From IMG/VR virus record IMGVR_UViG_3300047319_000410, positions 3,599-67,598 of that record: a stretch of 64,000 nucleotides of DNA; one strand, 5' to 3'. The notes under the pieces were generated by a model. It saw only the letters and a list, made by a program, of their open reading frames with translations, ran no database searches and had not been told where the DNA came from. The stretch's first letter is position 1. Each line of letters starts with the position of its first letter. Of this stretch, positions 5,158 through 37,245 are shown piece by piece. The stretch comes from a virus. Both the position numbers and the translations under genes were made by a program.

Positions 5158-5714
5158 TATTTTATTGCCTCCAAATTTAAACTCATTAATTGTCCATTTA
5201 CTTTATCCATGTGTGGGAGATAAGCTTGTGAATAATCATCTATACTACCGTGTTCAATATTTCTCCAATTCCATAAAGTAAGTTGATTAAATCCTGCATC
5301 ATTAAGCATATTACCTAATTTTTGATAATCAAATGCTTGAAAATGATAATCATAATCATTCTTATGACCGCCAAAAGTTAAACCAGATAATATATCAATA
5401 TTACTATTATTTTCCATAGGAAAAACATTAATGATATAATATTCGGCAATTGCTTTAAAATCTGGCACCGATAATCTTAATACTCCACCCTTTTTTAATA
5501 CTCTCCAACATTTATTAAGAATAATTTGTGATTCAATTTTCTTATAATGCTCTAATACGTGACACATATAGATAACATCTACACTACCACTTTCACAAGC
5601 AGCAAGATAGTTTTCTATACTACTAATAACATCAGCCTTACTTTCAGGTCTAATATCAACATTAATATAACCAGGAATATATCTTGATCCAGATCCAAGA
5701 TGTAATTTAACCAC
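5157..5714 (-). CDS. class I SAM-dependent methyltransferase
   Basis: KLHLGSG, HVLEH, RVLKKGGVLRLSVPD. Confidence 0.85.
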   Translation of the reverse strand: MVKLHLGSGSRYIPGYINVDIRPESKADVISSIENYLAACESGSVDVIYMCHVLEHYKKIESQIILNKCWRVLKKGGVLRLSVPDFKAIAEYYIINVFPMENNSNIDILSGLTFGGHKNDYDYHFQAFDYQKLGNMLNDAGFNQLTLWNWRNIEHGSIDDYSQAYLPHMDKVNGQLMSLNLEAIK

Positions 5715-8188: not shown

Positions 8189-8994
8189 ATAGGAATTATA
8201 CTTTCTCTGGCATCTTCCATTATAAACTCACGTCCTGTTAATTGTATTTGTAATCTATCTACTTGTGGACCATCATTACCAAACCCTGCGTGCCAAAGCA
8301 TTCTAGTAGTTAGAACATTGATTAACCCAGGAAGTTTAATCTTTTCCATAGTTTCTCCAAGAACTGCTGGAAGATCGGATACCTCATATGCATTTAGTCC
8401 AAAAGATCTGCCTACAGAAGCAATATCCCAGTCTCTTCTAACTTTCTTTTCAGTTAAAATTGATAGATTATTATCTTCTATTACAAATAGAATAGGTAGC
8501 TTCTTGTGGGCTGCATATCCCATAGCTCCCAATACATAATCTTCCTCGCAAGAAGCATCCCCCATAAAAGTTATTGTTATGTTTTTTGTACCTAAACAAT
8601 GTCCTACTGCTAATGGAACTTGATCCCCCATTAGTCCACTATGCCCAAACATATTAATATCTGGAGAATGAATAGAAGCTGATCCTCCCATTCCTTTAGC
8701 ACATCCAGTTTCTTTCCCTAATAGTTCGTCTATTAAAGATTCAATATCCCCCCCAAAACAAAGATAAGTAGAATGTGCCCTATGTTGAGCAAAAATAGCA
8801 GGTTTAAATATATAATCAGATATAGTAGCAGCTATAAACTCTTGCCCTACAGATAGATAGGTTGGAATTTTAATAAGTTTATTCCTTAGGCATTCAGCTA
8901 CTTTTTCTTCAAATACTCTACAGCAAGCAGCCTTAAATAAGATTCTTTCTTCTCTATTTAATATGGTGCTAGCTAATGTAATTAAATTAGTCAT
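8164..8994 (-). CDS. ThDP-dependent enzyme alpha subunit (PDH E1-alpha-like)
   Basis: YLSVGQE, HRAH, GCAKGMGGS, ThDP motif GDAS...IEDNN. Confidence 0.88.
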   Translation of the reverse strand: MTNLITLASTILNREERILFKAACCRVFEEKVAECLRNKLIKIPTYLSVGQEFIAATISDYIFKPAIFAQHRAHSTYLCFGGDIESLIDELLGKETGCAKGMGGSASIHSPDINMFGHSGLMGDQVPLAVGHCLGTKNITITFMGDASCEEDYVLGAMGYAAHKKLPILFVIEDNNLSILTEKKVRRDWDIASVGRSFGLNAYEVSDLPAVLGETMEKIKLPGLINVLTTRMLWHAGFGNDGPQVDRLQIQLTGREFIMEDARESIIPIWDKQLQK

Positions 8995-9629
8995 ACTGTA
9001 GGTTCTACTACCATTAATTCTAATGGCTCATCATAATTAAATTCTTTAGCTAACAAGTTCCATGTCTTACCAGAAAGAACATCTCCACAAGATGCTACGA
9101 ACACATTATCAATATTTTTTAAACCACCTTTAATAACCACTATAGATGCATAATCTTTAATTTTAATAGTAGAATCTCTAATTATACTTATCTTATGATT
9201 TTCAAAAAATCTAGTATTATCATTACTTATTAATAAGTGGCTATCATCTCGTGTTATATAATCAGTTTCATAAGTTGATTTACGACGACCATACTTATCT
9301 CTTAATCTTACTAAGTCAACTTTATTGTTAGGGCATTCAACCTCAAACAATCCTATACCATTATCAGATAATGCCTTAGTAGAGTGAAAGACCCCTTCCC
9401 TAATAGTAATCTTAGCAGGAACAGTAAGAAATCTAGATTCATTGAGGAATGATAGTTCAGCAACTCCTCGTAATAAAATTAATCCTGTTTTTTTATTAGG
9501 GTGACAATGCATGGATGTAGATTCTTCATGATTAATATGAAGATACCAAATACCCATATTATCATCTGAGTATACTAAATACTCAAATCCCCAAGGCTTT
9601 TTAACTACGACTTTTGAGAAATCTTCCAT
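8991..9629 (-). CDS. cupin-domain protein (sugar isomerase/epimerase-like)
   Basis: KKPWG, STSMHCH, GVFHST, DLVRLRDKYGR, resembling type II PMI cupins. Confidence 0.72.
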   Translation of the reverse strand: MEDFSKVVVKKPWGFEYLVYSDDNMGIWYLHINHEESTSMHCHPNKKTGLILLRGVAELSFLNESRFLTVPAKITIREGVFHSTKALSDNGIGLFEVECPNNKVDLVRLRDKYGRRKSTYETDYITRDDSHLLISNDNTRFFENHKISIIRDSTIKIKDYASIVVIKGGLKNIDNVFVASCGDVLSGKTWNLLAKEFNYDEPLELMVVEPTV

Positions 9630-10137
9630 ATTGATCTATTACTGCTTTCATCCAAGGTCCCATATGCTTGTAATGAGGAGAAGAAACTATATTACCAGAA
9701 ATAACATAGGGCTCATCTACATATAATGCTCCTGCATTATTTATATCATCCTTAATACTATAATATCCAGAAATTCTATGCCCCCGCACTAGTTTAGCAG
9801 AAATCATTAATTGAGCACCATGACAAGTACTACCTATAACTTTTCCAGTATCATAGTAATTTCTAATAAAAGTAAGTGCTGTTTTCTCTTGCCTAAGTTT
9901 TTCTAGTGCTTTAACCCCTCCAGGAAGAATTAATAAATCAAAGACATTAGTATCAGAACTTGATAAAGTTCCAACAGATAAATTTGCTTCAAACTTACTT
10001 CCTAAAATTCCAGTTATAGTACCTTCTCTTTCAGCAGCTATAGTAACTTTAAATTCTTCTTCTAATAGTCTATAATAAGGATAAATAACCTCTTGATCCT
10101 GAAACCCATTCCACGTTAATATTAATACATTTTTCAT
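9601..10137 (-). CDS. DJ-1/PfpI family protein
   Basis: FQDQE, LILPGG, STCHGAQ nucleophile elbow. Confidence 0.88.
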   Translation of the reverse strand: MKNVLILTWNGFQDQEVIYPYYRLLEEEFKVTIAAEREGTITGILGSKFEANLSVGTLSSSDTNVFDLLILPGGVKALEKLRQEKTALTFIRNYYDTGKVIGSTCHGAQLMISAKLVRGHRISGYYSIKDDINNAGALYVDEPYVISGNIVSSPHYKHMGPWMKAVIDQYGRFLKSRS

Positions 10138-11069
10138 AATTGTACTCTACTTAAAATTGTTTGCCAAAATATCTTATTATTATACTTTTCTTTGAAAGTC
10201 TTATATCCCCTTTGAGCTACTTGAGCACCAAAATGAGGAGATTCTATATGTGCTTCTATTAATTCTAGTAAATCTTTAGGGCTATTAAATTCAATATAGT
10301 CCCAAGCAGGCATAAATAGTTTTTCAGTAGCTTCGTTTTTCTTTTCTAACAGTAAATTACCGCTAGCTAATATTTCAAATACTCTACCCTTACATTGATC
10401 TTTACCTGTGGGAGACTCACAGAAATTAATTCCTATTCTTGATCTTCTGATATAGTTAGCATATTCTTTAGGACTTAATTTCTGCTCTCTTTGTCCACCG
10501 GTAACTAATAGATCTTTAAAATGTTCCTGCACATAATTAAGATATTTACTTCTATCGCTGTATCCATTAAGACTGCCAATAAAACTAGCTACATTAACCT
10601 TTTCTTCTGGTTTATTATAGAACATTGTTTCATCTTGGGGAGTCCATAATTTTAATTGTTTTTCAGGATACTCATGATTTATTACATCATAGTCCCAAGA
10701 TATATGAAGACTAGCAATATCTCCTAAAGAATTAATTTTATTTATTGACCATCCATAGTTTATATCAGGCCATACTATTGCAATTGGAACAGAGGCACTA
10801 ATCTTCTTTAAAAGCTCATCACTTGGATTACTTGGATGAGTACCAAGATAGGATAATACTACTAACTCAGGCTTCCATCCATTTAAACATGCAATAACAG
10901 CACTATTAAATATATTCTTCTCCATTACATCATAATGGATAACTTTATACTCTCCTAACCCTGACTGTTTAAAAGTGGCAAATAAATTATTATAGTGATT
11001 AGATAAACCTAAAGAAGGATTAGCGTCTGGGTGGCATTCAGTTAAAAACAATACACGTCTAGAATTCAT
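10134..11069 (-). CDS. GT-B fold glycosyltransferase (CgeB-like)
   Basis: SFIGS, SRIGINF, KGRVFEILASG, IAQRG-type C-terminus. Confidence 0.75.
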   Translation of the reverse strand: MNSRRVLFLTECHPDANPSLGLSNHYNNLFATFKQSGLGEYKVIHYDVMEKNIFNSAVIACLNGWKPELVVLSYLGTHPSNPSDELLKKISASVPIAIVWPDINYGWSINKINSLGDIASLHISWDYDVINHEYPEKQLKLWTPQDETMFYNKPEEKVNVASFIGSLNGYSDRSKYLNYVQEHFKDLLVTGGQREQKLSPKEYANYIRRSRIGINFCESPTGKDQCKGRVFEILASGNLLLEKKNEATEKLFMPAWDYIEFNSPKDLLELIEAHIESPHFGAQVAQRGYKTFKEKYNNKIFWQTILSRVQL

Positions 11070-12855
11070 TTATAGCTTTTTTCTTAAATTTTTGTGCTCT
11101 GCGTCCAAACCAAATAGTCTCATATCCCCATTGAATCTTATCACCACTTTCAGGAGGAAAGGAGATATGATCTAATTGATAATCCACTATTCCTTTATTA
11201 AAGCAATTAAGATAATTCAGGAATTTAATTATCTCTTGTTTGAGTATGGTTCTATCTTGTACTAGCCTTAACCAACTGGCTTCTTCCATCGGCCAGCTAA
11301 TATCCCCTATTTTAGGGTCATAATGATCCCAGCCACCACCAGCATAACCCTTAGTGGCATGTAGAACTGCTTTATCATACTCATCTTTAAATAAAGAGGG
11401 CTGAGTTTTACAATACTCTAACAAACGATCATAAAAGTCATCTATATTTAAAGCGTTTTTAAAATAGTGTGCTAATAGTTCCATTATACCAAAAGCATGA
11501 AATACTAACATCATCCAATTATAAGTATAAACCTCTATCATGTCATCTTCTGATAAAGAAGAGGTAGATCTTACCATTCTTTCATATTCAGGTATAATGT
11601 CTTTTCTATTACTAGAATGTTGTAAGAACACTGGAGACTTAAAGGTCTTAATTCCATAAGTTCTTTTATATTCCTCATCATTCATGGGTGCATTATTAAA
11701 TACACTACAGTTCCAAGTAAGGACTGATGGTAATGGATAAATTGCAGCTAGAATCTCCCAATTCCTTTTATAGGTTGCTACTGTTTCTCCAGGTAAACCC
11801 ATAATTAACTCAGTATAAGACTGTAATCCTTCGCTATCAAACTTAGTAACTAAGTCCTTAAAACTACTGAACTTAATATTGGCCCTCTTGATAACTTTAA
11901 GTGTATTAGGATCAAAGGTTTGTACCGATAATGATATTGCTCTTAATAATTCAGCGTCAGCTAATTTCTTAGCCATTGGAATTATCTTTTCAGATGAAGT
12001 CTTAACCCAGGTCAGCCCTAATTTACTAGGAAATCCAGTAGCCTTTTTTACTTCATTTAACTTGCAAGCTAGTTTATAATCTCTTTCAGGAAAGATACCA
12101 AAGTTACCATCACATACGTCTACATAGATAATTTCATTCTTACCAAACCATTCAATCTCTTTATATAATCGTTCTTCACTAAAGTTTCTTATTTTAGTTT
12201 TAGTAGCAGAGCCCCAATCACAAAAAGTACATTGAAATGGACAGCCTCTATTAGTTTCCCAAGAGGCTATAAACTTATAATTAGTATTTTTATCTACATA
12301 GTTCCACATTTCATCACTATAAGTAGAAGGAATTTCATCAAGATTAGTCATTCTATCTTGTGGAATAAATTTTTTACTTTTAACCTCACATCCGGGCACA
12401 TCTACAGGATGCCCACATATTATATAATCAATATATCCCATTAATAAATTATGAAGAACTACTTCCCCCTCTCCATGTACTATAATATCAACATAGAAAT
12501 GTTCTTCAAAAAAGTTAATATGAACATCTGGGACTTCCGGTCCTCCAAATATTATTATACATTGAGGATTTATCTTTTTAACTTCCTTAGCTAATAAACA
12601 GGTAATCTCCCAATTCCAACAATAACAGGAACATAATAGTATATCTGCATCTCTGCACTTCTCTATATCAGAATAAACATTATCCCTAATAAAGAATATC
12701 TTCTGAAAGTCAAAGTTATCCTGTATCTCCTTATGTTTATTGGAATACATTATATTTGTAAGTATACTATAAGGAAGGTGAATCTGATTATCACCAAAAA
12801 AACAACTATACTGACTACTAAAGACTTTAAATTTACTTTTCATGAAGATAATCAC
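11059..12855 (-). CDS. cobalamin-binding radical SAM enzyme
   Basis: SCYCWN/GGPEV/GEGE B12-binding domain followed by ETNRGCPFQCTFCDW. Confidence 0.9.
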   Translation of the reverse strand: MIIFMKSKFKVFSSQYSCFFGDNQIHLPYSILTNIMYSNKHKEIQDNFDFQKIFFIRDNVYSDIEKCRDADILLCSCYCWNWEITCLLAKEVKKINPQCIIIFGGPEVPDVHINFFEEHFYVDIIVHGEGEVVLHNLLMGYIDYIICGHPVDVPGCEVKSKKFIPQDRMTNLDEIPSTYSDEMWNYVDKNTNYKFIASWETNRGCPFQCTFCDWGSATKTKIRNFSEERLYKEIEWFGKNEIIYVDVCDGNFGIFPERDYKLACKLNEVKKATGFPSKLGLTWVKTSSEKIIPMAKKLADAELLRAISLSVQTFDPNTLKVIKRANIKFSSFKDLVTKFDSEGLQSYTELIMGLPGETVATYKRNWEILAAIYPLPSVLTWNCSVFNNAPMNDEEYKRTYGIKTFKSPVFLQHSSNRKDIIPEYERMVRSTSSLSEDDMIEVYTYNWMMLVFHAFGIMELLAHYFKNALNIDDFYDRLLEYCKTQPSLFKDEYDKAVLHATKGYAGGGWDHYDPKIGDISWPMEEASWLRLVQDRTILKQEIIKFLNYLNCFNKGIVDYQLDHISFPPESGDKIQWGYETIWFGRRAQKFKKKAINEF

Positions 12856-13375
12856 TGACTTCTACTAAGATAGTTGATTTACCTTTTTTGGCTTGCTCTA
12901 ATGCATTTTTATAAGAATATTGTATATCTACTAAACTGCCCAATCTTTGAACCCAAATATGATCTAACATTTGTTTCATAGGAGAAGTAAAATCTCCTGT
13001 GTGCTGTGGGCCTGGGTGCAAAGGTCTTTCGGATCCTATCCCAGTTCTTATTATAACTCCAGGTTTATATCCTCCATCAGACATAACTCCTATTTTATCT
13101 AAGTGATTAACCAACTGATTAATCCCTAACAATAAAAAGTTCCACCTAGGGAATATACTTATAGGAATAAAGCCTTCTAGGGCTAATCCAATGCTCATTC
13201 CCATCTGCATCTCTTCGGCTACAGGTAATTCGAGCCTCTTTTCCATCGGAACATCAGCTAGTGTACCATACATGCCAGTACCAGGATAACTTACCGCCTG
13301 TCCTATAAAAATAGTATCAGGATGCTTTCCTAACATTGTCATAGAAGCCTTTAGATCATCAAAATACTTACCCAC
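12833..13375 (-). CDS. short ThDP-dependent enzyme beta subunit (pyrimidine-binding domain only)
   Basis: ELPVAEEMQMGMSIGLALEG, HPGPQHT; ~180 aa with no C-terminal domain; GTG start overlapping the upstream TAG. Confidence 0.8.
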   Translation of the reverse strand: MGKYFDDLKASMTMLGKHPDTIFIGQAVSYPGTGMYGTLADVPMEKRLELPVAEEMQMGMSIGLALEGFIPISIFPRWNFLLLGINQLVNHLDKIGVMSDGGYKPGVIIRTGIGSERPLHPGPQHTGDFTSPMKQMLDHIWVQRLGSLVDIQYSYKNALEQAKKGKSTILVEVSDYLHEK

Positions 13376-13989
13376 TAAAATTGTATCCTTTCTCCACTTA
13401 AAGGACCAGCATGAGGACAAGGTAAATCATAGCTATATCCATCTACATATTTAATAGGTAAACTTACTACCAAATCTTCTGTGTTATTATTAACCCAAGT
13501 ATTTCTAGTAGGGGTACAAACTGATTTACCATTATCTTCTATTATAAACTTTATGGGTAGATCGTGACCTATAACATACTTTATGGACTCCCAAAATATC
13601 CCTGTCTCTGCTGTCATATCACCAATAAAAACATAAACTTTAGAATCTCTATTCTTTAGTTTAATAGCTTTTGCTATTCCAACCCCTATAGGAATATTAC
13701 CACCAACAATAGCAGAGGATAAAATCTTATACTCGGGAAAACAAAGATTAATTGATCTTCCATTTAATATTGCTTGTTTAAGTTCCTCTTTTGGAACTCC
13801 CTTTAATAAACATTTATAATGGGATCTCCAGGTAGTAAGTACCCAATCTTGTTTTCTAATATCTTTAAATATCTCTATTAGTTGATCTTCATTATTTCTC
13901 TCTAAATGGATAGGAGCTTTAATCTGTTTATTAATAAAACAGTTAGAGATATCTTCCTCAAACTCTTGTAATTCAATTTTAGATAGCAT
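13375..13989 (-). CDS. short ThDP-dependent enzyme alpha subunit
   Basis: APIHL, WRSHY, SSAIVGG, GDMTAETG...IEDNG. Confidence 0.82.
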   Translation of the reverse strand: MLSKIELQEFEEDISNCFINKQIKAPIHLERNNEDQLIEIFKDIRKQDWVLTTWRSHYKCLLKGVPKEELKQAILNGRSINLCFPEYKILSSAIVGGNIPIGVGIAKAIKLKNRDSKVYVFIGDMTAETGIFWESIKYVIGHDLPIKFIIEDNGKSVCTPTRNTWVNNNTEDLVVSLPIKYVDGYSYDLPCPHAGPLSGERIQF

Positions 13990-15406
13990 ACTTTCTCTTA
14001 AGATCAATCTTCATCATATTATTAATATCGTCAATTACATACTGACCAAACTTATCTTTCATGTAAGACAGATAAGAAGGATTAGAAAAATACTGCTTAA
14101 AAGCGCGATCCCTAAAAGTAAGCACTTCACCACCTGTAATATACTTAGTGTCAAGTGGCCTAGTCTCATAGGCATGTTGAGAATATCCCAACCATGTTTC
14201 AGGTAACTTCCAACCTTCTTTAATAGCGATTTCATATAATTTACTTCCGGGGTAAGCCATTGCACAGTAAAAATTAGCATACTCTGTTTTTAACTCTAAA
14301 GCTAAGTCCAGAGTACGCTGCATGGTTTCTTGATTATCCTCAGGTAATCCAAAGATATAATTAGCTCCAACACAAATGTCAAATTCTCTAATCTTCTTTA
14401 CTATATTAAGAATATTAACATCTTCATATTTACCTTTAACTACATCCTTACGAACCTCTTTAACTCCAGATTCAATGCCTAAAGCAAGCCAATTAACTCC
14501 TGCTTTCTTTAATATCTCTAAGTGTCTCTCTTTGACCGTATCAATACGAGAATAGCACCAAATATTAAAGTCATGTTTTCTTTCAGCTATTAACTTACAA
14601 AGCTCTAGGAAATGGTCTTCTACTAAGACAAACATTTCATCTGCAATCTTTACATTCTTAATACCCATTTCTGCTATTCTATCAAACTCTTTAATTGTAT
14701 GCTTAGGATCCCAATATCTAATCATTTTCTTAGAGAATGGAGAGTTAATCATACAAAAGGTACAAGAAAATGGGCATCCAAGACTAGTATAAACTGATGC
14801 AAATGGAGTTCTAATTCCTTTGTTAGTCCATCCATGCCAATTAGATGTTCGATATTTATCCATTGGTAATAAATCCCAAGCCATGCCAGGAAGTTTAGTT
14901 CCTAGTTCTTCTTGGGGAATTATAGATTCTGTATAAATATGATCAATTGGTCCTTTATTATTAAGGAAATCTAATATAGAGTCTAGTCCTTCTCCTTTAA
15001 CTACATAATCTGAACATATAGTATCCAAAGAATTTTGGGGTAGTGCAGAAATATGCCCACCAATCAACATAACTTTATATCTTGTACTGTAATAAGCCTC
15101 TAATACATCTAATAATTTCTTTGCCCCTACCATATTTTGAGTAGATGCAGATGGTTGTTGACCATAAATTACTAGCACTACCAATCTAGGATTAAGTGCT
15201 CGTATTTGAAATACTGTGTCTTCACTTTGATAATTATTAGCTTCACAATCTAATATACCAACACTATAACCTTTAGCTCTTACTCCATTAGCTAGAAGGG
15301 AAGCCCAGATTGGCGGTTCCTTAGCACTATATTCAGTACTTAATCCTTGATATATTTTACTTGCGGCATTTGGGTGTACAAATAAAACGTCTAAATTACT
15401 TTGCAT
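13979..15406 (-). CDS. cobalamin-binding radical SAM enzyme
   Basis: EPPIW, GGHISALP, KGEG, SLGCPFSCTFC, GIESG, IFGLPED. Confidence 0.9.
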   Translation of the reverse strand: MQSNLDVLFVHPNAASKIYQGLSTEYSAKEPPIWASLLANGVRAKGYSVGILDCEANNYQSEDTVFQIRALNPRLVVLVIYGQQPSASTQNMVGAKKLLDVLEAYYSTRYKVMLIGGHISALPQNSLDTICSDYVVKGEGLDSILDFLNNKGPIDHIYTESIIPQEELGTKLPGMAWDLLPMDKYRTSNWHGWTNKGIRTPFASVYTSLGCPFSCTFCMINSPFSKKMIRYWDPKHTIKEFDRIAEMGIKNVKIADEMFVLVEDHFLELCKLIAERKHDFNIWCYSRIDTVKERHLEILKKAGVNWLALGIESGVKEVRKDVVKGKYEDVNILNIVKKIREFDICVGANYIFGLPEDNQETMQRTLDLALELKTEYANFYCAMAYPGSKLYEIAIKEGWKLPETWLGYSQHAYETRPLDTKYITGGEVLTFRDRAFKQYFSNPSYLSYMKDKFGQYVIDDINNMMKIDLKRKYAI

Positions 15407-15602
15407 CTTTAATTTCTTTATATAACTTCTTAAACTCTTTTAAATCTACTTCTAATTCTTTAATAACTTCTTTAAGTCCTTGCTTATCTAAAGTTTCACT
15501 ATCACTACAACACCCGCAGCCAGGGGTTGAGGCTCTAATTTCTCCACCATCATCTATATAAATAGAATCATATCTTGCATTAAATAATCTTACGTATGTC
15601 AT
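15396..15602 (-). CDS. small hypothetical protein (GCGCC)
   Basis: 68 aa ORF overlapping both neighbours. Confidence 0.6.
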   Translation of the reverse strand: MTYVRLFNARYDSIYIDDGGEIRASTPGCGCCSDSETLDKQGLKEVIKELEVDLKEFKKLYKEIKDAK

Positions 15603-15919
15603 TTTTTAATTAAACTTTCAATACTATTAAGAAATACTTTTGTAGCATCTTCTCTACCAAAATACATATACTCTGTAGTAGAATCATGTTCTTTATCAAT
15701 ATTTACACACAGTACAGATGGATAATCAAAATTACATTTCTCGCACCATATAAACAAATTATATTCTGACCATTGTAATGTTTCATCCCAATCAACCTTA
15801 CATTTTGGACATCTATATCCCAGTTCACAAGGAAAATCAAAAGGAACTACATTAGTTGGCCTTTTGCCTACTAATTTTTCAGCCCTTTCATTTTTACTTA
15901 TTATTGACTGCGTTTCCAT
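15599..15919 (-). CDS. hypothetical zinc-ribbon protein
   Basis: CPKC...CEKC; coupled to both neighbours. Confidence 0.65.
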   Translation of the reverse strand: METQSIISKNERAEKLVGKRPTNVVPFDFPCELGYRCPKCKVDWDETLQWSEYNLFIWCEKCNFDYPSVLCVNIDKEHDSTTEYMYFGREDATKVFLNSIESLIKK

Positions 15920-16923
15920 TATAAATTAGTGTAAGGTTGATTAGTTGGAAGTAAAATACTATATGCCTTGATAAGCTCTTTAATTCCGTCTCTAAGGCTG
16001 TACTTAGGCTTAAATCCTAGAGCCTCGATCTTAGCATTGGAGACGAGGTAGTCCCTCTTATCAGGATCAGACCTTATCTCAGAAGATGCTATGCAAAAAT
16101 CAGGGATATATTCTTTAATTCTTTCTGCTAGTTCTAACTTGGTTATATTAGTATCTGAAAGACCTACATTATATGCTTGACCCCTCATTCTATCAAAGTT
16201 ATTAATTGCAAAGATAAAGGCTAAGGCTACGTCATGAATATGGATAAAATTACGTTTAAATTCCTTCTCAAATAATACAATATACCCATCTTTTACTGCT
16301 TTGTAAGTAAAATCATTAACTAATAAGTCTAATCGCATTCTAGGAGAAGCTCCAAAGACAGTTGCTAGTCTTAATACTACTGCTCTACCATCTTCTAATA
16401 ACATTCTCTCTGCGTCACACTTAGTTTTACCATAAACACTAATTGGTTTTAATGGAGTTTCCTCTGTACAGAACTTACCTGATCCTTCTCCTAATCCATA
16501 GCCACTATTAGTATTAGGGAATATAATCTTTGCTTCTGGCCTAGCATACATTAAGATATTAGCAATTTGATTCCAATTAACGTCCCAAGCTAGTTTTTGA
16601 TCTTTATCACAGGCTGGGAATCCTACTATCGCTGCTAAAGGTATAATTACGTCTGCTTCTTTTACATATTTTGCTAATTTAACTTCGTCTCTAACGTCTC
16701 CATGTACAAACTCTATATCTCCCTTGTAGCAATAATCAGTAAGATTAACTTGTTTATACATTAGCGAGTCGTAGCACACGATTTTATCATAATAGAACCT
16801 ATATTCTGGGTGATTCTCTTTAAAGTCAAAGTCTAAAAATCCTGATATAGTCTTAGCAGTTATTAGTTTTTGAACTAATACAGAACCAAGATAACCATTA
16901 CTGCCCGTTATAAGAATATTCAT
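15919..16923 (-). CDS. NAD-dependent NDP-sugar epimerase/dehydratase (extended SDR)
   Basis: ILITGSNGYLGS, LAAIVGFPAC, YGKTK, LRLATVFG. Confidence 0.9.
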   Translation of the reverse strand: MNILITGSNGYLGSVLVQKLITAKTISGFLDFDFKENHPEYRFYYDKIVCYDSLMYKQVNLTDYCYKGDIEFVHGDVRDEVKLAKYVKEADVIIPLAAIVGFPACDKDQKLAWDVNWNQIANILMYARPEAKIIFPNTNSGYGLGEGSGKFCTEETPLKPISVYGKTKCDAERMLLEDGRAVVLRLATVFGASPRMRLDLLVNDFTYKAVKDGYIVLFEKEFKRNFIHIHDVALAFIFAINNFDRMRGQAYNVGLSDTNITKLELAERIKEYIPDFCIASSEIRSDPDKRDYLVSNAKIEALGFKPKYSLRDGIKELIKAYSILLPTNQPYTNL

Positions 16924-17432
16924 TACCAACTAATCTCCCAATCTTTAAAATCTGCTGCGAGACAATCAATTTTATAATCTTTTCTTCCGCCCTCTAAATA
17001 TTCTTGAATCTTATTTTTAGCAGTATTTCTTATACCATTAAGGCCATGAGTTAATTCAAGATTATTACCATCTTTAATTCCTTTACGATAATTTGTTTCA
17101 TTATGCCATATATGAAGATTCATTTGTGATAATACCATTATTGCTCTTATGAAATTTGCATCAATATCTTCATAGGGAATACCTCCTATAGCAATATCAA
17201 TATCGTGTAAGATATCTTTAATCTCTTTAGCATACTCTTCTTTATGTTCTTTAATAAAAACTTCTTTAAGTTGAGCAATGCTAAGACGATCAATAAGTTC
17301 TGCTAAAGTAGGAAGATATTTTCTTTCCCTATTTTTAAATGATTCCTCTACGTCAATATAAGTGACTGGAGGTTCCAATGGGACTTCTTTGCCTAATATT
17401 CTAACACATCCATTTTTTGGATCATAAACCAT
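16923..17432 (-). CDS. helical protein, DUF4254-like
   Basis: TLAELIDRLSIAQLK motif, recognised by eye. Confidence 0.5.
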   Translation of the reverse strand: MVYDPKNGCVRILGKEVPLEPPVTYIDVEESFKNRERKYLPTLAELIDRLSIAQLKEVFIKEHKEEYAKEIKDILHDIDIAIGGIPYEDIDANFIRAIMVLSQMNLHIWHNETNYRKGIKDGNNLELTHGLNGIRNTAKNKIQEYLEGGRKDYKIDCLAADFKDWEISW

Positions 17433-18031
17433 TATTTACCTCTTCCATTTGTTCCTTCCAATTTTGGACGAACTAAAATTAGTATCTTTTCTAGCCAATC
17501 TACTTTATATCCTTCTTTAACGCACTCCATAACATGAATATAATCACTATAGTCAGGATATAATTGTATCATCTTAGTATTAAATGGTAACTTAGTAAAT
17601 ATCTCAGTTCTATAAGTTGGACAAGCAACATTACCACCAACTAAGCCCTTAGATTTATCTTTACAAAGAATCATACCATTATTAAACTGTAGTCCTGGAA
17701 TCCATATGTCAATATTTGGTTTTTCTTTTAATGCAGATCTTAATATATTACCCGCCCCTACTGCAAACTCATCATCATCATCTAAAACAGTTACAAACTC
17801 TGTCTCTGCTGTTAAAGCTCCAAGATTAAGAGACATATATCCATAATTATGATACCTTCTGCCTGTGGATAATACTTTTAAAGTACTGTGCATAGCGTCT
17901 GGCTCTGGAACTGAGGGCCAAACCCCATCACCAACTACTAATATCTTCTTTAATCCTTCTCTTTTAGCAGACTCAACTGCATTAATTACTGTTGGTCTAT
18001 TGATTGATCGTATTATGACTGTCGTTTCCAC
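17432..18031 (-). CDS. GT-A fold glycosyltransferase-like protein
   Basis: TVIIRSINR, VVGDG, LNLG...FVTVLDDDD. Confidence 0.72.
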   Translation of the reverse strand: METTVIIRSINRPTVINAVESAKREGLKKILVVGDGVWPSVPEPDAMHSTLKVLSTGRRYHNYGYMSLNLGALTAETEFVTVLDDDDEFAVGAGNILRSALKEKPNIDIWIPGLQFNNGMILCKDKSKGLVGGNVACPTYRTEIFTKLPFNTKMIQLYPDYSDYIHVMECVKEGYKVDWLEKILILVRPKLEGTNGRGK

Positions 18032-19250
18032 CTTTTATTATTCCTTTATATTTAAGTAGTTCTCTATAAAGAGTCAAACGATTATGTACAACTTTATTTA
18101 AGTCAAAGTACTCATCTGTTATCTTTTTAAGATTTTGACCTAATTCCTCTCTATGTTTCTTATCTTTAATTAACTTAGTTAGAACTCGTACCCACTCAGT
18201 CCTGGGGGATTTTGGATCTATAAGATAGCCTGTTTTCCCGTTCTTTATAGTCTCCTCATAGCATCCGACGTTAGAAGCTACCAAAGGAACTCCATATCGT
18301 CCACACTCAGCTACCTTTATTTCTGACTTGCTATCATTAAATTCATTCATATTAAGAGGAGCAATAGCAACATCCATATTAGCATACATAATTCCATACT
18401 TATCAGCAGGCAGAGCACCATAAATATCCCAATTACGAGAACCTCTAAATCCAGCTAATAATGCTTTTCGATAATCTTCCCATACATCTTGTTGCCAATC
18501 TTCTTTTCCTGGCTCTACAGGAGGTTTACCATAAAATCCCCAATGTACGTTTTCTTTTCCTACTCTTTGGTTAACCATTTGAGGAACCCCTAAGAATTCT
18601 TTTACGTCATGGCTATGGTGAATTCCTCCGGCCCATCCAACTCTAGTTAATCCTTTTTTAGGTGTTTTAAACTTAGGAGCGTTCCAGCATTCTAAATTAT
18701 AATCAATAGCATTCTTAATTACTGCTAGTATTCCGTGGCAATAATCTTTAACCCTATGAGCAAACTTAACTTGAGTTACAGAAACTAAATCAGAGTGTGT
18801 ATAAATAAACTTAGTTATTTCCTCTAATCCCTTTTCCTTATAAACACTATAAAGTCTATGCTCTGGAAATAGATTGATTAACAGGTCATCGGTATCAAAA
18901 TGAAATAACTTATTCTTCTCTTTAACTTTACCTAATACTCTTGCTGTATAGTTACCACCAAAGTTACATATATTATTAGTTATTACTATATCTGCCCATT
19001 CAATATCTGCTAGATTATCCTCATCAAATTTACCTGATGATAAATCTAAATTAAGAGGATTGTCGTTTCTTTTAACCTCTATAACATTAGAGTATAATTC
19101 AATTAATTTAGCTACAGGATTAAGAACCCTATAAAAACTACATCCGCCTTCATTTGGTGGAAACATCAATAATCTTAATTTTCTTCCTAGTCCTGGAAAT
19201 TCGATCTGCTCTTTCCAGAACTCTGCTGTTGTTTCTATAGAATTGGTCAT
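17997..19250 (-). CDS. GT-B fold (family 4-like) glycosyltransferase
   Basis: GCSFYRV, DTDD, VGWAGG..H..D, FNDSKSEIKVAE, PLVASNV, NGKTGYL. Confidence 0.88.
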   Translation of the reverse strand: MTNSIETTAEFWKEQIEFPGLGRKLRLLMFPPNEGGCSFYRVLNPVAKLIELYSNVIEVKRNDNPLNLDLSSGKFDEDNLADIEWADIVITNNICNFGGNYTARVLGKVKEKNKLFHFDTDDLLINLFPEHRLYSVYKEKGLEEITKFIYTHSDLVSVTQVKFAHRVKDYCHGILAVIKNAIDYNLECWNAPKFKTPKKGLTRVGWAGGIHHSHDVKEFLGVPQMVNQRVGKENVHWGFYGKPPVEPGKEDWQQDVWEDYRKALLAGFRGSRNWDIYGALPADKYGIMYANMDVAIAPLNMNEFNDSKSEIKVAECGRYGVPLVASNVGCYEETIKNGKTGYLIDPKSPRTEWVRVLTKLIKDKKHREELGQNLKKITDEYFDLNKVVHNRLTLYRELLKYKGIIKGGNDSHNTINQ

Positions 19251-30040: not shown

Positions 30041-30328
30041 TTATTTTTTACTCCTAATAAATTTTGAAAATCCTCTATCTAGCTTACCAACATTAGAATA
30101 AGATAAATCATGAAATTTTTCTCCAATTTTATTGGGCAAAGCACTAATATAATAATCATGATTTTCATCTTTTATCACAAATTCAAAACTGCCACACTCT
30201 TCTTTATTCATAGGATGATAACATAGTCCAACACCAGAATCCTCATCTAAGTTAAGTAAATGAGCGGAAACAATAGTATTCTCTGACTTAGTACCAAAGT
30301 CTCCAGTAATCTTATATTTAATTTTCAT
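30041..30328 (-). CDS. hypothetical protein
   Basis: 95 aa ORF coupled to the polymerase gene. Confidence 0.6.
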   Translation of the reverse strand: MKIKYKITGDFGTKSENTIVSAHLLNLDEDSGVGLCYHPMNKEECGSFEFVIKDENHDYYISALPNKIGEKFHDLSYSNVGKLDRGFSKFIRSKK

Positions 30329-31421
30329 TTAATATCTCCTGTAAATTACTTACCTTACCATTAACGTATTTAACTTCTGTTCCTACATCGAACGCACGTC
30401 CAACAACTACTTCTATATTAAACGGCACTTCGCACTCAAATCCATAGATTTTTCTCAAAGATGGATAATTTATCATCTTATCATAAATTATATTTAAAGC
30501 CTCTTCTAACTCTGGTCTTGGAGACTCATTCTCAGCACTATCATGTACAGTTGCTAAAATTAATGAGTCGAGGCCACGTAACTCAAACTCATCATGAATA
30601 TCCATAAGACAATAAAGAAGAATGTCTGAAGCAGGGCGCTGGATTTTAAAATTGATTCCTTGTCGTTCTGCGTGCTCACGTACCTTCTTAATAGGAGACT
30701 TAATATCAGGGAGATTGCGCCTTCCGCCAAATAAACTTGTAACATATTGATGTTCATGTAAAAACTCTCTTGTTTCATCCATCCAAGTAAAAATACCCGG
30801 ATAAACTTCCATATACCTGTTTATAATACTCTGTGCTCTTTGAATCGAAATATTAACCTCAGAAGCTAATCTTCCTGCTCCTCCACCATAAACAATTAAG
30901 AAAGATACTGACTTTGCAATCTGTCTCTCTTCCTTAGTAATTTTCTCGATTGGTTTCTCAAAGATTAAACTAGCAGTATAAATATGCAAATCCACTCCTG
31001 AGCGGATTGCATTAATCATCTGCTTATCTTTACATACGTGTGCTAATACCCTTAGTTCCATTCCCGAATAGTCAGTAGTTATAAACAACCACTTAAGGGA
31101 ATTAAAAATCTCTCTTATATTAAGTTCTTTAGTTTTTCTTGGCAGAGTGTGGAAAGATACGCCCATTTTGTAATAACGAGAGCAAGACAGTCTACCAGTC
31201 GTAGTGCCATCAAATTTAAAATCAACATAAACTTTATTCTCACCATTATAATCTACTGCCTTCTTAATTCCTTTATAATAGGTTGAATATAACTTAGAGA
31301 CTTTCTTATACTTTTGAACTTGATTTATAAAGTCTCTAGCTCTTATTAAATCTTCTATAGATTTGGATTCAATTACCTTTCGGCAAATATCCTCATCTAT
31401 TTGTCTCTGATTTATTTTCAT
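30318..31421 (-). CDS. family A DNA polymerase, piece 3 (catalytic domain)
   Basis: TTTGRLS, motif A DYSGMELR, motif B RQIAKSVSFLIVYG, motif C VHDS. Confidence 0.92.
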   Translation of the reverse strand: MKINQRQIDEDICRKVIESKSIEDLIRARDFINQVQKYKKVSKLYSTYYKGIKKAVDYNGENKVYVDFKFDGTTTGRLSCSRYYKMGVSFHTLPRKTKELNIREIFNSLKWLFITTDYSGMELRVLAHVCKDKQMINAIRSGVDLHIYTASLIFEKPIEKITKEERQIAKSVSFLIVYGGGAGRLASEVNISIQRAQSIINRYMEVYPGIFTWMDETREFLHEHQYVTSLFGGRRNLPDIKSPIKKVREHAERQGINFKIQRPASDILLYCLMDIHDEFELRGLDSLILATVHDSAENESPRPELEEALNIIYDKMINYPSLRKIYGFECEVPFNIEVVVGRAFDVGTEVKYVNGKVSNLQEILNEN

Positions 31422-31581
31422 TAATTAAAGTCTTTAAAAGTTCTACGGCCACCTTGTTTGCTGCTGAGGCATGATCAGTTTTATTCTTTATAGTAAAGCC
31501 CATAGCAATATCCAAAGCAATCTTAGCGTCAAGTTTAATCTGTTCATTCTTTAATTTAATATCGTTTTTACTTAATCTCAC
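31393..31581 (-). CDS. small hypothetical protein between polymerase pieces 2 and 3
   Basis: 62 aa ORF overlapping both polymerase pieces. Confidence 0.55.
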   Translation of the reverse strand: MRLSKNDIKLKNEQIKLDAKIALDIAMGFTIKNKTDHASAANKVAVELLKTLINENKSETNR

Positions 31582-32047
31582 TTTGGATTCTTTCGTTTAT
31601 CATATCAAGCAAAGTAACAAGACACTCCTTATTTGTAGCAGGCTTTTTACCTTTAGTTAACAATGGAGGATATAAACCTATCCCTCTATCATCAGTAAAT
31701 AAAAAGTCGGCTAAGTCATCTCCAGAAGACGGATTAGTGTCTTTATCATAGTGCATTTCTCTAATGCTATTATACAGTTCAGTGTTTTTTTCTTTCAATG
31801 TCTTTCCTACTTCTTCTAGTTTGATAGGATCAATAGTCATTCCTCTATATTCTATCTTAGCAAACTTAGGAAGCATCTTAGTTATTAAAGTCTCATAATA
31901 AGTCTCAACCCCTAGTTCTTTTAACTGGGGTTTTAATTTATTATAAACTCTTAACGTAAAATCACTATCTGTACAATTACCTAATGCCATCTCTGCTAAT
32001 GGCATATTCTCCCAATCAGTCTTCTTAGGATTTTTATTAGTTAACAC
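31568..32047 (-). CDS. family A DNA polymerase, piece 2 (Exo III region and start of thumb)
   Basis: NCTDSDFTLRVY, KIEYRGMTID, NPSSGDDLADFLF, TKGKKPATNKECL. Confidence 0.85.
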   Translation of the reverse strand: MLTNKNPKKTDWENMPLAEMALGNCTDSDFTLRVYNKLKPQLKELGVETYYETLITKMLPKFAKIEYRGMTIDPIKLEEVGKTLKEKNTELYNSIREMHYDKDTNPSSGDDLADFLFTDDRGIGLYPPLLTKGKKPATNKECLVTLLDMINERIQSEIK

Positions 32048-32164
32048 TTATGGACACCATCTTCTGTGAATAATACCACACAAACTACATTTAACTCTTT
32101 GATACCATCCAACTTGAATCCACTCTCCCCATTGATGCCAACCAAATCTACATCTTAATCTCAT
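32048..32164 (-). CDS. 38-aa Cys/His/Trp-rich micro-protein between polymerase pieces 1 and 2
   Basis: MRLRCRFGWHQWGEWIQVGWYQRVKCSLCGIIHRRWCP fills the gap exactly; not in the ORF track. Confidence 0.65.
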   Translation of the reverse strand: MRLRCRFGWHQWGEWIQVGWYQRVKCSLCGIIHRRWCP

Positions 32165-32165
32165 A

Positions 32166-33167
32166 TTAAAACTCCTGTAAATATTCTGGGTAGTGTTCCT
32201 TAACTAAGTCCTTTAAATGCTTTGGTTTATTCTCTTCTATTTGATGCTGCATTAAAAGCGTATCATCCACATTAATTACTGTAATTTCATTATGTAAAAG
32301 CATCTTTAAATCAAATTTAGCATTGTGAAATACTTTTCTATTAAGTTTATTCTTACATATTAATGACATAAAACTTAGTGTAGTCAGAGGTTCAATCAAG
32401 GACTCTTTATGATAAACTGGGAAGCAAATTGCTTTACCTTCATCCCAAGCTATTGATACAGTTAATAATTTATCTTTAAGGAAATTTAATCCCTCAGTCT
32501 CAGTATCAATGGCAATAGTTTTATCAGTAGTAAATAACCATCTATAGTCTTCTAATTCTTTCTCTGAGTTAATAAGTTTATAATCTTGATTAATTACTGT
32601 CTTTATTTTTAAAATGTACTTATGATATGCATTTCTTATATCCTGCTCAAATAATACAAGGTTACGAGGCTCGTAAATAATAGAAGCAGGGTGTACAATA
32701 GGGACAACAGGAATTTCTTCATAATAAAATGTCTGTCCTCTCTTATCAATAATTCCACTCTTTCTAATTAGCATCTTCATTGCTAAGTTACCCATTGGAA
32801 TTATAAGTTTGGGCTTAAGTTTATCTATGGTATCTTTTAAGTGCTGCCTACAAATCTTCATATTAGAAGGAGTCATATCAGATTCCTTAATACTTGGACA
32901 CTTAACAGAAGCTAAACAAGTCCAACTAATTTCATCACTAAAAATCTTTCCAATAGTCTCTTTTAATAAGATATAGTTATCTGGAAGAAGTGCAACAGCA
33001 TTATTATCATAAGTTGGTCTTAGACAATCAGATAAAAATAATACATCTACTTCTTTAGAATTTTCATAATCCATGAATGAATGGAAAGGTTTATTCAACT
33101 TAAGAATTGAACATCCTTCACATTTTGAATTATTAGTAGATAAAGCTGGGAAGTCTATTTCGTCCAT
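32166..33167 (-). CDS. family A DNA polymerase, piece 1 (UDG-like domain + Exo I/II)
   Basis: CEGC, VKCP, ICRQHL, HPASII (family 4 UDG-like fold); IAIDTET; FHNAKFD; DDTLL. Confidence 0.87.
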   Translation of the reverse strand: MDEIDFPALSTNNSKCEGCSILKLNKPFHSFMDYENSKEVDVLFLSDCLRPTYDNNAVALLPDNYILLKETIGKIFSDEISWTCLASVKCPSIKESDMTPSNMKICRQHLKDTIDKLKPKLIIPMGNLAMKMLIRKSGIIDKRGQTFYYEEIPVVPIVHPASIIYEPRNLVLFEQDIRNAYHKYILKIKTVINQDYKLINSEKELEDYRWLFTTDKTIAIDTETEGLNFLKDKLLTVSIAWDEGKAICFPVYHKESLIEPLTTLSFMSLICKNKLNRKVFHNAKFDLKMLLHNEITVINVDDTLLMQHQIEENKPKHLKDLVKEHYPEYLQEF

Positions 33168-33181
33168 AACTATAATAAAGT
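33168..33181. promoter_or_regulatory. 14-bp divergent spacer with overlapping -10 boxes
   Basis: Plus strand TATAAT-aaagt-ATG; minus strand TATTAT-agtt-ATG. Confidence 0.55.
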
Positions 33182-33529
33182 ATGAGTAATTATATTGATA
33201 ATAAGAAGTTTGAAAAACTGATATGGAACTATAAAAAGAATCCCAGGAAATATGAGAAAGAATTTACTGAAACGCTTGATCTTCTTATATCAACTATAAT
33301 ACATTCATTCTCCTTTAAAATGGAATTTGATGATGCTAAACAGGATTGTTTCCTTTTAATCTTAAAAGTTCTTAAAAACTTTGATAAAACTAAGGGTCCT
33401 GCTTTTAATTACTTTACTACTGTTATACTAAACAACCTTAGAGCAATATACACTAAGGATAAGAAATATACCAAAAGTATTGATAACTATATTAGTTATA
33501 TGATGAAACTTCAAGATGAGAGAGATTAA
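33182..33529 (+). CDS. gp55-like late-transcription sigma factor
   Basis: NYIDNKKF, DDAKQDC..ILKVLKNFD.TK..AFNYFTT, resembling sigma region 2 / T4 gp55. Confidence 0.75.
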   Translation: MSNYIDNKKFEKLIWNYKKNPRKYEKEFTETLDLLISTIIHSFSFKMEFDDAKQDCFLLILKVLKNFDKTKGPAFNYFTTVILNNLRAIYTKDKKYTKSIDNYISYMMKLQDERD

Positions 33530-34752: not shown

Positions 34753-37245
34753 CTAAAGATTAGATTTAGTTAACATAGTTTCTAAGAGCTTACGTGTTAA
34801 AGCAAGATAATTATCTATTTCTACACTGTCATGAACACCTTTCATAACATTATGAGATACTTCATGCATTAACTCTTTCATATACTCAGTTACTTGAGTA
34901 GTTACAATAGAAGATAATTTTTTATTATAATCATCTTTAGCTCTAGTGAATAAAATTTTAAATATTACATGAGGTTTACCTAATACTCTTTTAATTATAT
35001 TAATTGATTGTCCACCAGAACCTTCAATTTCATAATCACCAGAAATTATTCCTTTAGCCATTTCTTGATTTAAAGTATTTTGATTAAATCTATAGATCTT
35101 GTTACTCTTAAGATTTCTTATTTCTAAACCTACGTTATTAATAGAGTTACCAGTTTCTAATATTAACATTCCTAAAGCTTGTCTAGCTAATCTAGTTTTA
35201 TTAGGATCTTTAATATCTCTTAATAAAACCCCTCTTGCAACTCTATTCTGAATTGAAACTTTAATTTTCTCTAAAGTTGGATATTCTTCCATTTTGACTC
35301 TTTTAATAGAGTCATCAATATCCTTTTTATATAATTGAGACTGAAAATCCCCAGCAGCTAATAGATCACTGACTATTTTTAATGTTTGTTCAATAGGATC
35401 AATATCTTTTCTTCCTATTACTTCTTCATTAAACAAATCATCAAGATGAGTTAATTGTTTATTAATTGCTCCATAATATGCTTTTAATGGTGAAGGTTGC
35501 TTTTCAGTAACGAAATTAAGATTATCATCTGAAAATGCAGTTGGTACAAAGCCAAATACTTCCTTTAGCATTAATTTACCAATCTGAGTTCCACTTTCCT
35601 TTGACCAACTTACTTTAAAATTAATAGGAAGTGCATGAACTATTTCTCCAGCTCCTATTCCTTGTTGCATTAAGTTACCAGAATTTGATTGTAAGTCTCC
35701 TGCTGTAAAGGACATAAGATCAGTTTCTTTTAATCCAAAGGTTTTAGCTGCTGCTAACGCTTTCCCTTTATTTGACTCTTTATAGACCTCCAAAATATCA
35801 GCTTTCTTACCTTTTTCAGATATATTACCAACGTGTAAGATAGCATCTGGTTGTCTGGAAGCAAAAGACTTAGTAGCTGATTGACCAAATAAACTATTAA
35901 GACTAGAGATTAATACTTGTTTGCTGGCTTCTAAAGCCATAAAATTACTATCTTTCTCTATTTTTAATAAGTCATTATAAAGGAATGCAGATAATTTATC
36001 TGCTTCTACAGAATCTTCACTATAAAGTACTTCGTTTATTCCTATCTTAGCTACGTACTCATTAAATTTATCTATTCTATTGCCCACATCTAGGGATATT
36101 TTAGTGAGTGTAGCAAGAGCTAGGGCTTTGTCCCCTCTTGCTACAGCTGCGACGACCATAGGGTATAACTCGAAGGATTTTCCCAGGTAATTAATCCATA
36201 CAATGTCCGACTCCCCCATCTTCTCTCTAGAGGTAAATCTAACTGAGTCACGATAAGATATAGCATCCTTTTCAAAGTCAGGAATATCTTTCTCTTTTTT
36301 CCAATGGGATACTCTTTTATTAAAAGATAAAACTAAATTAACAAAAGGATCACTTAAAATTTCTTCCTTCTTTTTATGTATCCCACCAGTCCCAACACCA
36401 TAGTCTGGGAGACCCTTACCTCTAACCCAAAGACCATTCCTGTCTATAATTAAAGTTTTAGCTAATTCTTGTAAATCGCCCTCTTTAAAAGTGTTGTGTC
36501 TAACAGATTCTTCAATTAAAGTTACTGCTTTAAATAAGTTTTCTGTGAAAGCATTCCTGGTAGTAGGATCTAAAACTCGTCTTTCATATCCTAGTTCACT
36601 TATAGCATAATTAACTTCTCCATTAAGTTTACCATAAAGACCCTGAGTTCCAGGGTTTAAAACTCTCATATTAAGTAAGTTTCCTGGAACTGATAACCAA
36701 TCAAGGGGCATTCCTGTTTTAGGAGATAAGGTTTGTTCAAAGAAACCATCAACTCTTAATTTTTCTAACTTATTTCCTATTTGTTGAAGATTATAAAGAG
36801 TGTTCTGTTCTAACATTGCATCTTCTGGTAAACCTCCCATTGGAGTCATTATATCCATAGGAACTGCTTTTGGAGCAAGTGCTAAATTTGACTCTTTTTC
36901 AGGTTCCTCTGTACCTGCACTTCCAACTCTTAATTTAGCCAACCATCTCCATTTTTCCATATTAACTTGACCAGATTTGGCAGTTAATATAGTTGGACGT
37001 TCTCCTGATTGAGTTTGAACATAGATTGGGAAATCTTGTCCCTCAATAGAATATGGAGTTAATAAGGCTACTGTAGGTTTAGTTGTAGTAGCCCAGGAAG
37101 GAATTTTAGCTACTGTACCTTGAAGACGCTCTACTTCTGTATCTATCTTAGCGTTTTGTTCATCATTCTCTACAATAGTTAATTTGAACTTACGCTTATT
37201 AATAAGTTCATAACTAGCTAACAGGTCTGTAAAGTAAGATTCCAC
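34753..37245 (-). CDS. large hypothetical protein, possibly virion-associated
   Basis: 830 aa, last gene of the tail operon; no recognisable family. Confidence 0.7.
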   Translation of the reverse strand: MESYFTDLLASYELINKRKFKLTIVENDEQNAKIDTEVERLQGTVAKIPSWATTTKPTVALLTPYSIEGQDFPIYVQTQSGERPTILTAKSGQVNMEKWRWLAKLRVGSAGTEEPEKESNLALAPKAVPMDIMTPMGGLPEDAMLEQNTLYNLQQIGNKLEKLRVDGFFEQTLSPKTGMPLDWLSVPGNLLNMRVLNPGTQGLYGKLNGEVNYAISELGYERRVLDPTTRNAFTENLFKAVTLIEESVRHNTFKEGDLQELAKTLIIDRNGLWVRGKGLPDYGVGTGGIHKKKEEILSDPFVNLVLSFNKRVSHWKKEKDIPDFEKDAISYRDSVRFTSREKMGESDIVWINYLGKSFELYPMVVAAVARGDKALALATLTKISLDVGNRIDKFNEYVAKIGINEVLYSEDSVEADKLSAFLYNDLLKIEKDSNFMALEASKQVLISSLNSLFGQSATKSFASRQPDAILHVGNISEKGKKADILEVYKESNKGKALAAAKTFGLKETDLMSFTAGDLQSNSGNLMQQGIGAGEIVHALPINFKVSWSKESGTQIGKLMLKEVFGFVPTAFSDDNLNFVTEKQPSPLKAYYGAINKQLTHLDDLFNEEVIGRKDIDPIEQTLKIVSDLLAAGDFQSQLYKKDIDDSIKRVKMEEYPTLEKIKVSIQNRVARGVLLRDIKDPNKTRLARQALGMLILETGNSINNVGLEIRNLKSNKIYRFNQNTLNQEMAKGIISGDYEIEGSGGQSINIIKRVLGKPHVIFKILFTRAKDDYNKKLSSIVTTQVTEYMKELMHEVSHNVMKGVHDSVEIDNYLALTRKLLETMLTKSNL

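Follow-up and report, generated by a model that had tools for sequence, protein, structure and literature searches.

A family A DNA polymerase apparently encoded by three genes, with a divided exonuclease site, in uncultured T4-like viruses

The three-gene polymerase locus

Family A DNA polymerases (PolAs) are textbook single-chain polymerases. Analysis of a 64,000-nucleotide stretch of viral DNA (bases 3599-67598 of the 67.6-kb viral metagenome record IMGVR_UViG_3300047319_000410, rated 39% complete; hereafter the window) revealed a PolA locus made up of three separate genes, termed pieces 1, 2 and 3. Profile and alignment comparisons confirmed, at the level of sequence, that the three pieces jointly encode one PolA fused to a uracil-DNA glycosylase (UDG)-like domain, and the three products probably assemble non-covalently into a replicative polymerase. 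An initial annotation of the window had described three collinear open reading frames (ORFs) with two small ORFs between them, each piece having its own start and stop codon, and the ORF list agreed with it exactly in coordinates and in the starts and stops (Table 1). The same annotation had placed the exonuclease site across two genes, which was borne out: piece 1 carries Exo I and Exo II, and piece 2 carries the Exo III aspartate (D27).

The best PHROG for all three pieces was phrog_17, which was matched in order by piece 1 (positions 476-785), piece 2 (793-919, 2.3e-12) and piece 3 (931-1239), so that almost no segment of the profile is lost at the cuts.

Domains and conserved residues of the three products

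The Pfam UDG profile (PF03167) matched residues 87-169 of piece 1 (3.1e-09, 37.5 bits against a cut-off of 24.3) and covered just profile positions 55-127 of 141; the best solved match of the UDG-like domain was 4zbx (1.1e-06). Residues C16, C19, C90 and C106 together with H159-P160 were invariant in 24 aligned homologues, and the four cysteines would presumably hold an Fe-S cluster. The exonuclease profile DNA_pol_A_exo1 (PF01612) matched residues 197-324 of piece 1 (1.5e-11, profile positions 2-126 of 173). Within this region Exo I (D221, E223) and Exo II (N282, F285, D286) were invariant in 24 sequences, and the C-terminus of piece 1 was conserved in the aligned homologues right up to the cut.

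Piece 2 had no Pfam match, and a search for protein homologues of 87-279 amino acids (aa) returned no match except piece 2 itself. Its residues 12-146 aligned to the Klenow chain at 163-294 (1.2e-05), with D27 at the Klenow Exo III aspartate; from Klenow anatomy we take the first cut to lie between Exo II and Exo III. Residues M1, L2, W12, G23, N24 and D27 were invariant (24 sequences), and in the aligned relatives the N-terminus of piece 2 (M-L-T) was conserved right to the cut. All four acidic exonuclease residues are accordingly present, D221, E223 and D286 in piece 1 and D27 in piece 2, each invariant in 24 sequences. The Exo III tyrosine of the DEDDy type, four residues before the aspartate, is absent, and the Klenow tyrosine aligns to G23 in the G23-N24 pair.

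Piece 3 matched PF00476 at positions 62-379 of 381 (3.3e-76, 257.1 bits against a cut-off of 34.3). Its residues 20-316 aligned to the KlenTaq chain at 224-514 (2.2e-44), and it also aligned to the Klenow chain at 301-581; by Klenow anatomy the second cut presumably falls between the two long thumb helices. Alignment to Taq placed D117 and E122 in what we take to be motif A, R166, K170, F174 and Y178 in motif B, and H293, D294 and S295 in motif C, of which D117, E122, R166, K170, H293 and D294 were invariant in 25 sequences. Motif C reads H-D-S-x-E (293-297) in piece 3 as against H-D-E in Taq, and the serine is invariant in the clade. The initial annotation had called the catalytic motifs intact; this stands for the acidic exonuclease residues and for motifs A and B, and does not hold for the Exo III tyrosine, which is a glycine, or for the motif C glutamate, which is a serine. 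As a separate observation, the two invariant substitutions (G-N in Exo III and H-D-S-x-E in motif C) could mark a distinct PolA subgroup.

Table 1. Features of the polymerase locus in the window, and contigs of other sequencing runs that bridge its ORF boundaries
Feature	Position	Strand	Description
Piece 1	32166-33167	-	333 aa, ATG start; UDG-like domain and first three quarters of the 3'-5' exonuclease domain
ORF38	32048-32164	-	38 codons, Cys/Trp-rich, ATG start; occupies junction 1
Piece 2	31568-32047	-	159 aa, GTG start; end of the exonuclease domain and first part of the thumb
ORF62	31393-31581	-	62 codons, GTG start, mechanically called, putative; in junction 2
Piece 3	30318-31421	-	367 aa, ATG start; second thumb helix, palm and fingers
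Boundary piece 1/ORF38			bridged by record 28 (contigs of other runs)
Boundary ORF38/piece 2			bridged by record 19 (contigs of other runs)
Boundary piece 2/ORF62			bridged by records 6 and 18 (contigs of other runs)
Boundary ORF62/piece 3			bridged by records 5, 11, 17 and 26 (contigs of other runs)

Conservation of the gene boundaries in related viruses

An exhaustive HMMER search with piece 3 against 1.84 billion cluster representatives showed that the best 30 or so representatives were 349-392 aa long and aligned end to end at 40-53% identity. The next tier consisted of proteins of 515-563 aa, which are fusions of piece 2 and piece 3 and carry the same M-L-T N-terminus as piece 2 of the window; unsplit PolAs of 800-980 aa appeared only at 39% identity or below. 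A search for related loci with the piece 3 sequence alone found no relative, and an alignment-based profile succeeded. The profile of the short form retrieved 306 viral contigs (the three-gene group) and that of the fused form 111 contigs (the two-gene group); 80 loci of each group were examined.

In the three-gene group, tblastn with the window proteins located piece 1 in 73, piece 2 in 76 and piece 3 in all 80 loci. The piece 2 match began at query residue 1 in 74 of 76 loci, and the piece 1 match ended at 326-333. Mechanical ORF analysis showed that junction 1 (between pieces 1 and 2) was fused in none of 73 loci; stop and start overlapped in 46 (by 1 nucleotide (nt) in 44 and by 7 nt in 2), and 50-2403 nt lay between the genes in the other 27. 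Junction 2 (between pieces 2 and 3) was likewise fused in none of 76 loci, with an overlap of 1-52 nt in 70 and a spacing of 21-585 nt in six, four of which were near-identical contigs. The overlaps at junction 2 differed among relatives (-4, -8, -17, -23 and others). Mechanical start calls for piece 2 gave ATG in 48, GTG in 2 and TTG in 2 of 52 distinct junction sequences, and Shine-Dalgarno (SD)-like motifs stood upstream of 29 of these 52 starts and of 33 of the 45 distinct piece 3 starts.

In the two-gene group, pieces 2 and 3 formed one ORF in 77 of 78 loci and piece 1 was separate in all 72 in which it was found, abutting piece 2 in 18 and lying 172-3732 nt away in 54. The break points named in the initial annotation are therefore conserved, the first cut in both groups and the second in the three-gene group. 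The inserts at the relatives' junctions, read by eye with no family scan, included lipoprotein-like ORFs on the opposite strand, a membrane protein of 91 aa, and ORFs resembling oxygenases, glycosyltransferases and kinases, and a homing endonuclease was not evident among them in the same reading.

Where foreign genes occupy junction 1 in relatives, a conserved A/T-rich decamer was observed at a fixed distance before the piece 2 ATG and was exact in 13 loci (for example L029 at 5504-5513, L034 at 5511-5520, L049 at 5513-5522 and L070 at 2983-2992). Possibly it serves as a phage promoter by which expression is restored. The decamer is not prominent in the window, with 9 matches at up to 2 mismatches against 11 expected.

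The arrangement in the two-gene group has to be weighed against a single three-part enzyme, for it would also suit real genes of another meaning, with pieces 2 and 3 forming a polymerase that lacks proofreading and piece 1 acting as a separate DNA-binding or uracil-sensing factor. Pieces 2 and 3 are one protein there, piece 1 stands apart, often with 1-3.7 kb and other ORFs between, the Exo III tyrosine is missing, and the Pfam UDG profile spans a limited part of piece 1. Against this, no variation is seen in the acidic residues of Exo I and Exo II (piece 1) or in the aspartate of Exo III (piece 2), an invariance that is difficult to account for if they do not make up a single site, and the two protein ends that face each other at the first cut are conserved up to it. 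Piece 1 also lay upstream of piece 2 in 72 of 78 two-gene loci and in 73 of the 76 three-gene loci with piece 2, the misses being mostly loci with short upstream DNA. We regard two separate functions as unlikely.

Junctions and small ORFs in the window

The gaps between the polymerase pieces of the window measure 118 nt (junction 1) and 146 nt (junction 2). The ATG of ORF38 lies 1 nt past the stop of piece 1, the GTG of piece 2 follows immediately after the ORF38 stop, and AGGAG is found 7 nt upstream of the ORF38 ATG, within the final codons of piece 1. Because of this placing of AGGAG and the abutting GTG, piece 2 is probably made by termination-reinitiation. At junction 2, ORF62 opens with a GTG and shares its first 14 nt with the end of piece 2; its last 29 nt are shared with piece 3, from the ATG onward.

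Neither ORF38 nor ORF62 had a Pfam or PHROG match, even at E<=10, or a tblastn match in the 80 related loci, and a pattern search for the Cys/His/Trp arrangement of ORF38 returned the window copy only. The protein-atlas neighbours of ORF38 were clusters of small Cys-rich proteins (scores 0.88-0.90), which is a lead only. By these comparisons ORF38 is a lineage-specific insert at junction 1.

Joining of the pieces into one protein by RNA splicing, by protein splicing through a split intein or by recoding was considered at this point. A single TAA separates ORF38 from piece 2, which is in the same frame, a slip by +1 at the stop of piece 1 would lead into the frame of ORF38, and introns are a familiar feature of SPO1-type polymerase genes (cited in PMC10580990). 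The evidence of the locus and of its relatives stands against all three routes. An Rfam search over the locus found no intron family at E<=10, its 7 matches at that threshold all being chance-level snoRNA or sRNA, the Pfam scan of the locus found no intein family, and the polymerase pieces lie in different reading frames, in agreement with the initial annotation, which saw no intein termini and judged the gaps too short for group I introns. There is no room for intein halves, because piece 1 is homologous to polymerases to its very end and piece 2 from its very start. With no intervening bases at junction 1 in 46 of 73 relatives and at junction 2 in 70 of 76, the objection of a spliced mRNA or a single full-length protein fails; the DNA that other loci carry (up to 2403 nt in the three-gene and 3732 nt in the two-gene group) includes opposite-strand ORFs. 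The varying overlap lengths at junction 2 place piece 3 in differing relative frames among relatives, and piece 2 begins with a conserved start codon and an invariant M-L-T. Joining into one protein is thus very improbable.

A scan for promoters and terminators found no more sites than in shuffled sequence and no minus-strand terminator between the pieces, and carries no weight. Alignment of the two intervening segments showed no similarity in their interiors. At their edges an exact 10-mer occurs at 32154-32163 and 31571-31580 on the minus strand, its only two copies in the window, which forms the 5' edge of both segments and the start of both ORF38 and ORF62 (both M-R-L); the 3' edges match at 13 of 15 positions (32030-32044 and 31414-31428). 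Shuffles or random pairs of windows produce each of the two coincidences in about 1-2% of cases, and the edge repeats may be chance or a trace of the arrival of the inserts.

Selection, assembly integrity and other polymerases

All three pieces are under purifying selection. The ratio of nonsynonymous to synonymous substitution (dN/dS), calculated pairwise by NG86 among relatives 80-97% identical in protein, had medians of 0.077 for piece 1 (31 pairs), 0.078 for piece 2 (43 pairs) and 0.052 for piece 3 (45 pairs), so that the objection of relaxed selection fails.

Near-identical DNA of 30300-33200 was detected in eight public runs, labelled rhizosphere or soil metagenome, at 0.31-1.00 of the sampled words, with no RNA run among those listed. 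Contigs of four of these runs, other than the likely source, span all four ORF boundaries with 0 differences (Table 1); these bridging contigs are of low depth, and the runs may share one sampling campaign. Together with the presence of the same cuts in 73-76 separate contigs, this removes an assembly error as an objection.

The window record had no PF00136 match and one PF00476 locus, in a record 39% complete. Five related records of 131, 130, 111, 100 and 92 kb, three of them rated 99-100% complete, carry the head protein of the window at 57-60% identity; none had a PF00136 match and each had one PF00476 locus. The objection of an intact polymerase elsewhere therefore fails for PolA and family B polymerase (PolB) in the relatives, and the split polymerase is apparently the sole recognisable polymerase of the lineage, as far as these profiles tell.

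A decaying pseudogene or an assembly artefact, with replication by another polymerase, might be suspected from a partial metagenome contig and two replaced canonical residues, and is hardly credible given cuts shared by so many contigs, dN/dS values of 0.05-0.08 in all pieces that argue against decay, substitutions that are invariant in the clade and not sporadic, relatives 99-100% complete without PolB or a second PolA, and boundaries reproduced without difference in other runs. Introns, inteins, recoding, assembly error and decay were all rejected because the cuts are conserved, the pieces are under purifying selection, the relatives hold a sole PolA and the boundaries are reproduced.

Proposed assembly of the polymerase

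The preferred reading remains one UDG-fused PolA made as three proteins. Under it, the three genes would be co-transcribed and translationally coupled, and piece 2 would act as the bridging subunit. Its Exo III helix would complete the acidic site to which piece 1 contributes Exo I and Exo II, and it would supply the first half of the thumb, the second half of which would open piece 3. Neither piece 1 alone nor piece 2 alone would then be an active exonuclease. ORF38 and ORF62 would be passengers, local inserts at gene boundaries, which in the relatives act as plain intergenic sites that receive unrelated genes. Complex prediction with the three chains gave no verdict, and a control in which the partner was kept and piece 3 replaced also scored high; the prediction carries no weight either way.

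Several points limit this reading. Binding of the three proteins to one another is a conclusion drawn from conservation, and an active enzyme is a prediction. The invariant G-N (24 of 24 sequences) in place of the Exo III tyrosine means that the proofreading chemistry may differ or be weak, and serine replaces glutamate in motif C. A second polymerase in the window's own genome is possible because the record is 39% complete, and the polymerase search in the relatives covered PF00136 and PF00476. The start codons in the relatives were assigned mechanically, and the tree described below is a quick, unfinished one in which the "three-gene" label of database proteins stands for a length below 400 aa alone.

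The split could also be functional and not neutral, with exonuclease activity depending on subunit assembly through the division of the proofreading site between pieces 1 and 2, which we consider rather doubtful. If it were so, the phage could adjust its fidelity or detach the UDG/exonuclease module from the polymerase core in the course of infection. The occurrence of the thumb cut in several branches of the quick tree could mean that this architecture has been favoured repeatedly and did not arise as a one-off accident.

Comparison with known polymerases

Unsplit family A polymerases fused to UDG are found in SPO1-like, N4-like and SP15-like phage groups (PMC10201439, PMC13697223), and an example of the unsplit form is gp037 of Pseudomonas phage SM1 (968 aa). 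They share with the window the order of family 4 UDG-like domain, 3'-5' exonuclease and polymerase, and differ in being a single polypeptide where the window has three genes.

The split PolA of S-SBP1-like, T7-like cyanophages has been called the first split in PolAs (Czernecki et al. 2023, PMC10201439), and an uncultured cyanophage lineage with a split polymerase has been described (bioRxiv 10.1101/325100). As in the window, gene fission has placed PolA in separate genes there, and a non-covalent association of the parts is proposed. The cyanophage polymerases consist of two genes cut at the exonuclease/polymerase domain boundary, in T7-like phages and with no UDG domain, whereas the window has three genes, both cuts inside domains and a divided exonuclease active site.

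In MEP401-type phages of OM43, PolA is in two ORFs with a small ORF of unknown function between them (PMC10580990). This small ORF resembles the junction ORFs of the window. The MEP401-type polymerase has a single cut, inside the polymerase domain, in podovirus-like phages, and its authors left an intron possible; for the window, unlike the MEP401 case, an intron is excluded because relatives exist without intervening DNA.

In PhiKZ the replicative polymerase, of family B, is built from an N-terminal and a C-terminal part with a gene each, whose stable complex was seen by cryo-EM (PMC13648687), and it is the experimental precedent that such splits work. It is a family B enzyme of two parts and proven, whereas that of the window is a predicted family A enzyme of three parts. 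Jumbo phages are also noted to have split forms of Pol III alpha and of RNA polymerase (PMC7824862).

A full-text literature search found two-gene PolA splits and no three-gene PolA or divided exonuclease site, in a literature whose supplements (PMC10201439, PMC13697223) could list more. Two-gene PolA splits are already published, and what is new here is the three genes and the position of both cuts within domains. The principle of split phage polymerases is thus already established, and the split of the window is real, old and widespread in uncultured viruses. Cuts within the exonuclease domain and the thumb are kept by a whole lineage of uncultured T4-like viruses, in hundreds of contigs of one collection. 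This offers a natural test of how far the polymerase fold tolerates fragmentation, and a ready-made three-part enzyme for the study of assembly-dependent proofreading. When viral metagenomes are annotated, short "DNA polymerase" fragments are not to be written off as broken genes.

Evolutionary history of the cuts

A quick IQ-TREE analysis of the piece 3 region (45 rows, midpoint-rooted) separated 35 split from 10 unsplit forms at SH-aLRT 99, and among the split forms the two-gene ones were basal. At least 4 changes on this tree are needed to account for the three-gene label. The cut between Exo II and Exo III looks like one old event common to the three-gene and two-gene groups. The thumb cut would be younger, having arisen or been re-fused more than once and not being confined to one clade; its history is tentative because "three-gene" was assigned by length alone.

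Genome setting and neighbouring genes

The genes of the window lie almost all on the minus strand. PHROG matches included the T4-type structural genes for the major head protein, tail sheath and tail tube, genes for a gp32-type single-stranded DNA-binding protein, SbcC/SbcD-type nuclease subunits and a late sigma factor, and genes for a DnaB-type helicase, ribonucleotide reductase and MazG. The head protein was about 30% identical to those of T4-like cyanophages. Judged by these matches, the window virus is a remote T4-like myovirus whose replication module is of mixed make-up. The initial annotation had spoken of a T4-like genome in which a family B gp43 would be expected; the genome is T4-like in its structural genes and some recombination genes only, and gp43 is not strictly expected because the helicase is of the DnaB type.

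With blastn, the locus matched none of the phage records. By tblastn the nearest phage records were Bacillus, Lysinibacillus, Gordonia and Pseudomonas phages at about 24-33% identity, and no phage record in the searched collection exceeded about 33%.

Beside the polymerase locus, an 830-aa ORF (34753-37245) had no Pfam or PHROG match. The region 631-19250 holds a long series of sugar-modifying genes, including glycosyltransferases, an aminotransferase and three nucleotide-sugar epimerase-like ORFs, among which several large ORFs are without a family. Some UDG-fused polymerases have been linked to thymine-modified genomes (2026 paper, PMC13697223). For the sugar-gene run of the window, a role in the modification of DNA or of surface glycans is conceivable.

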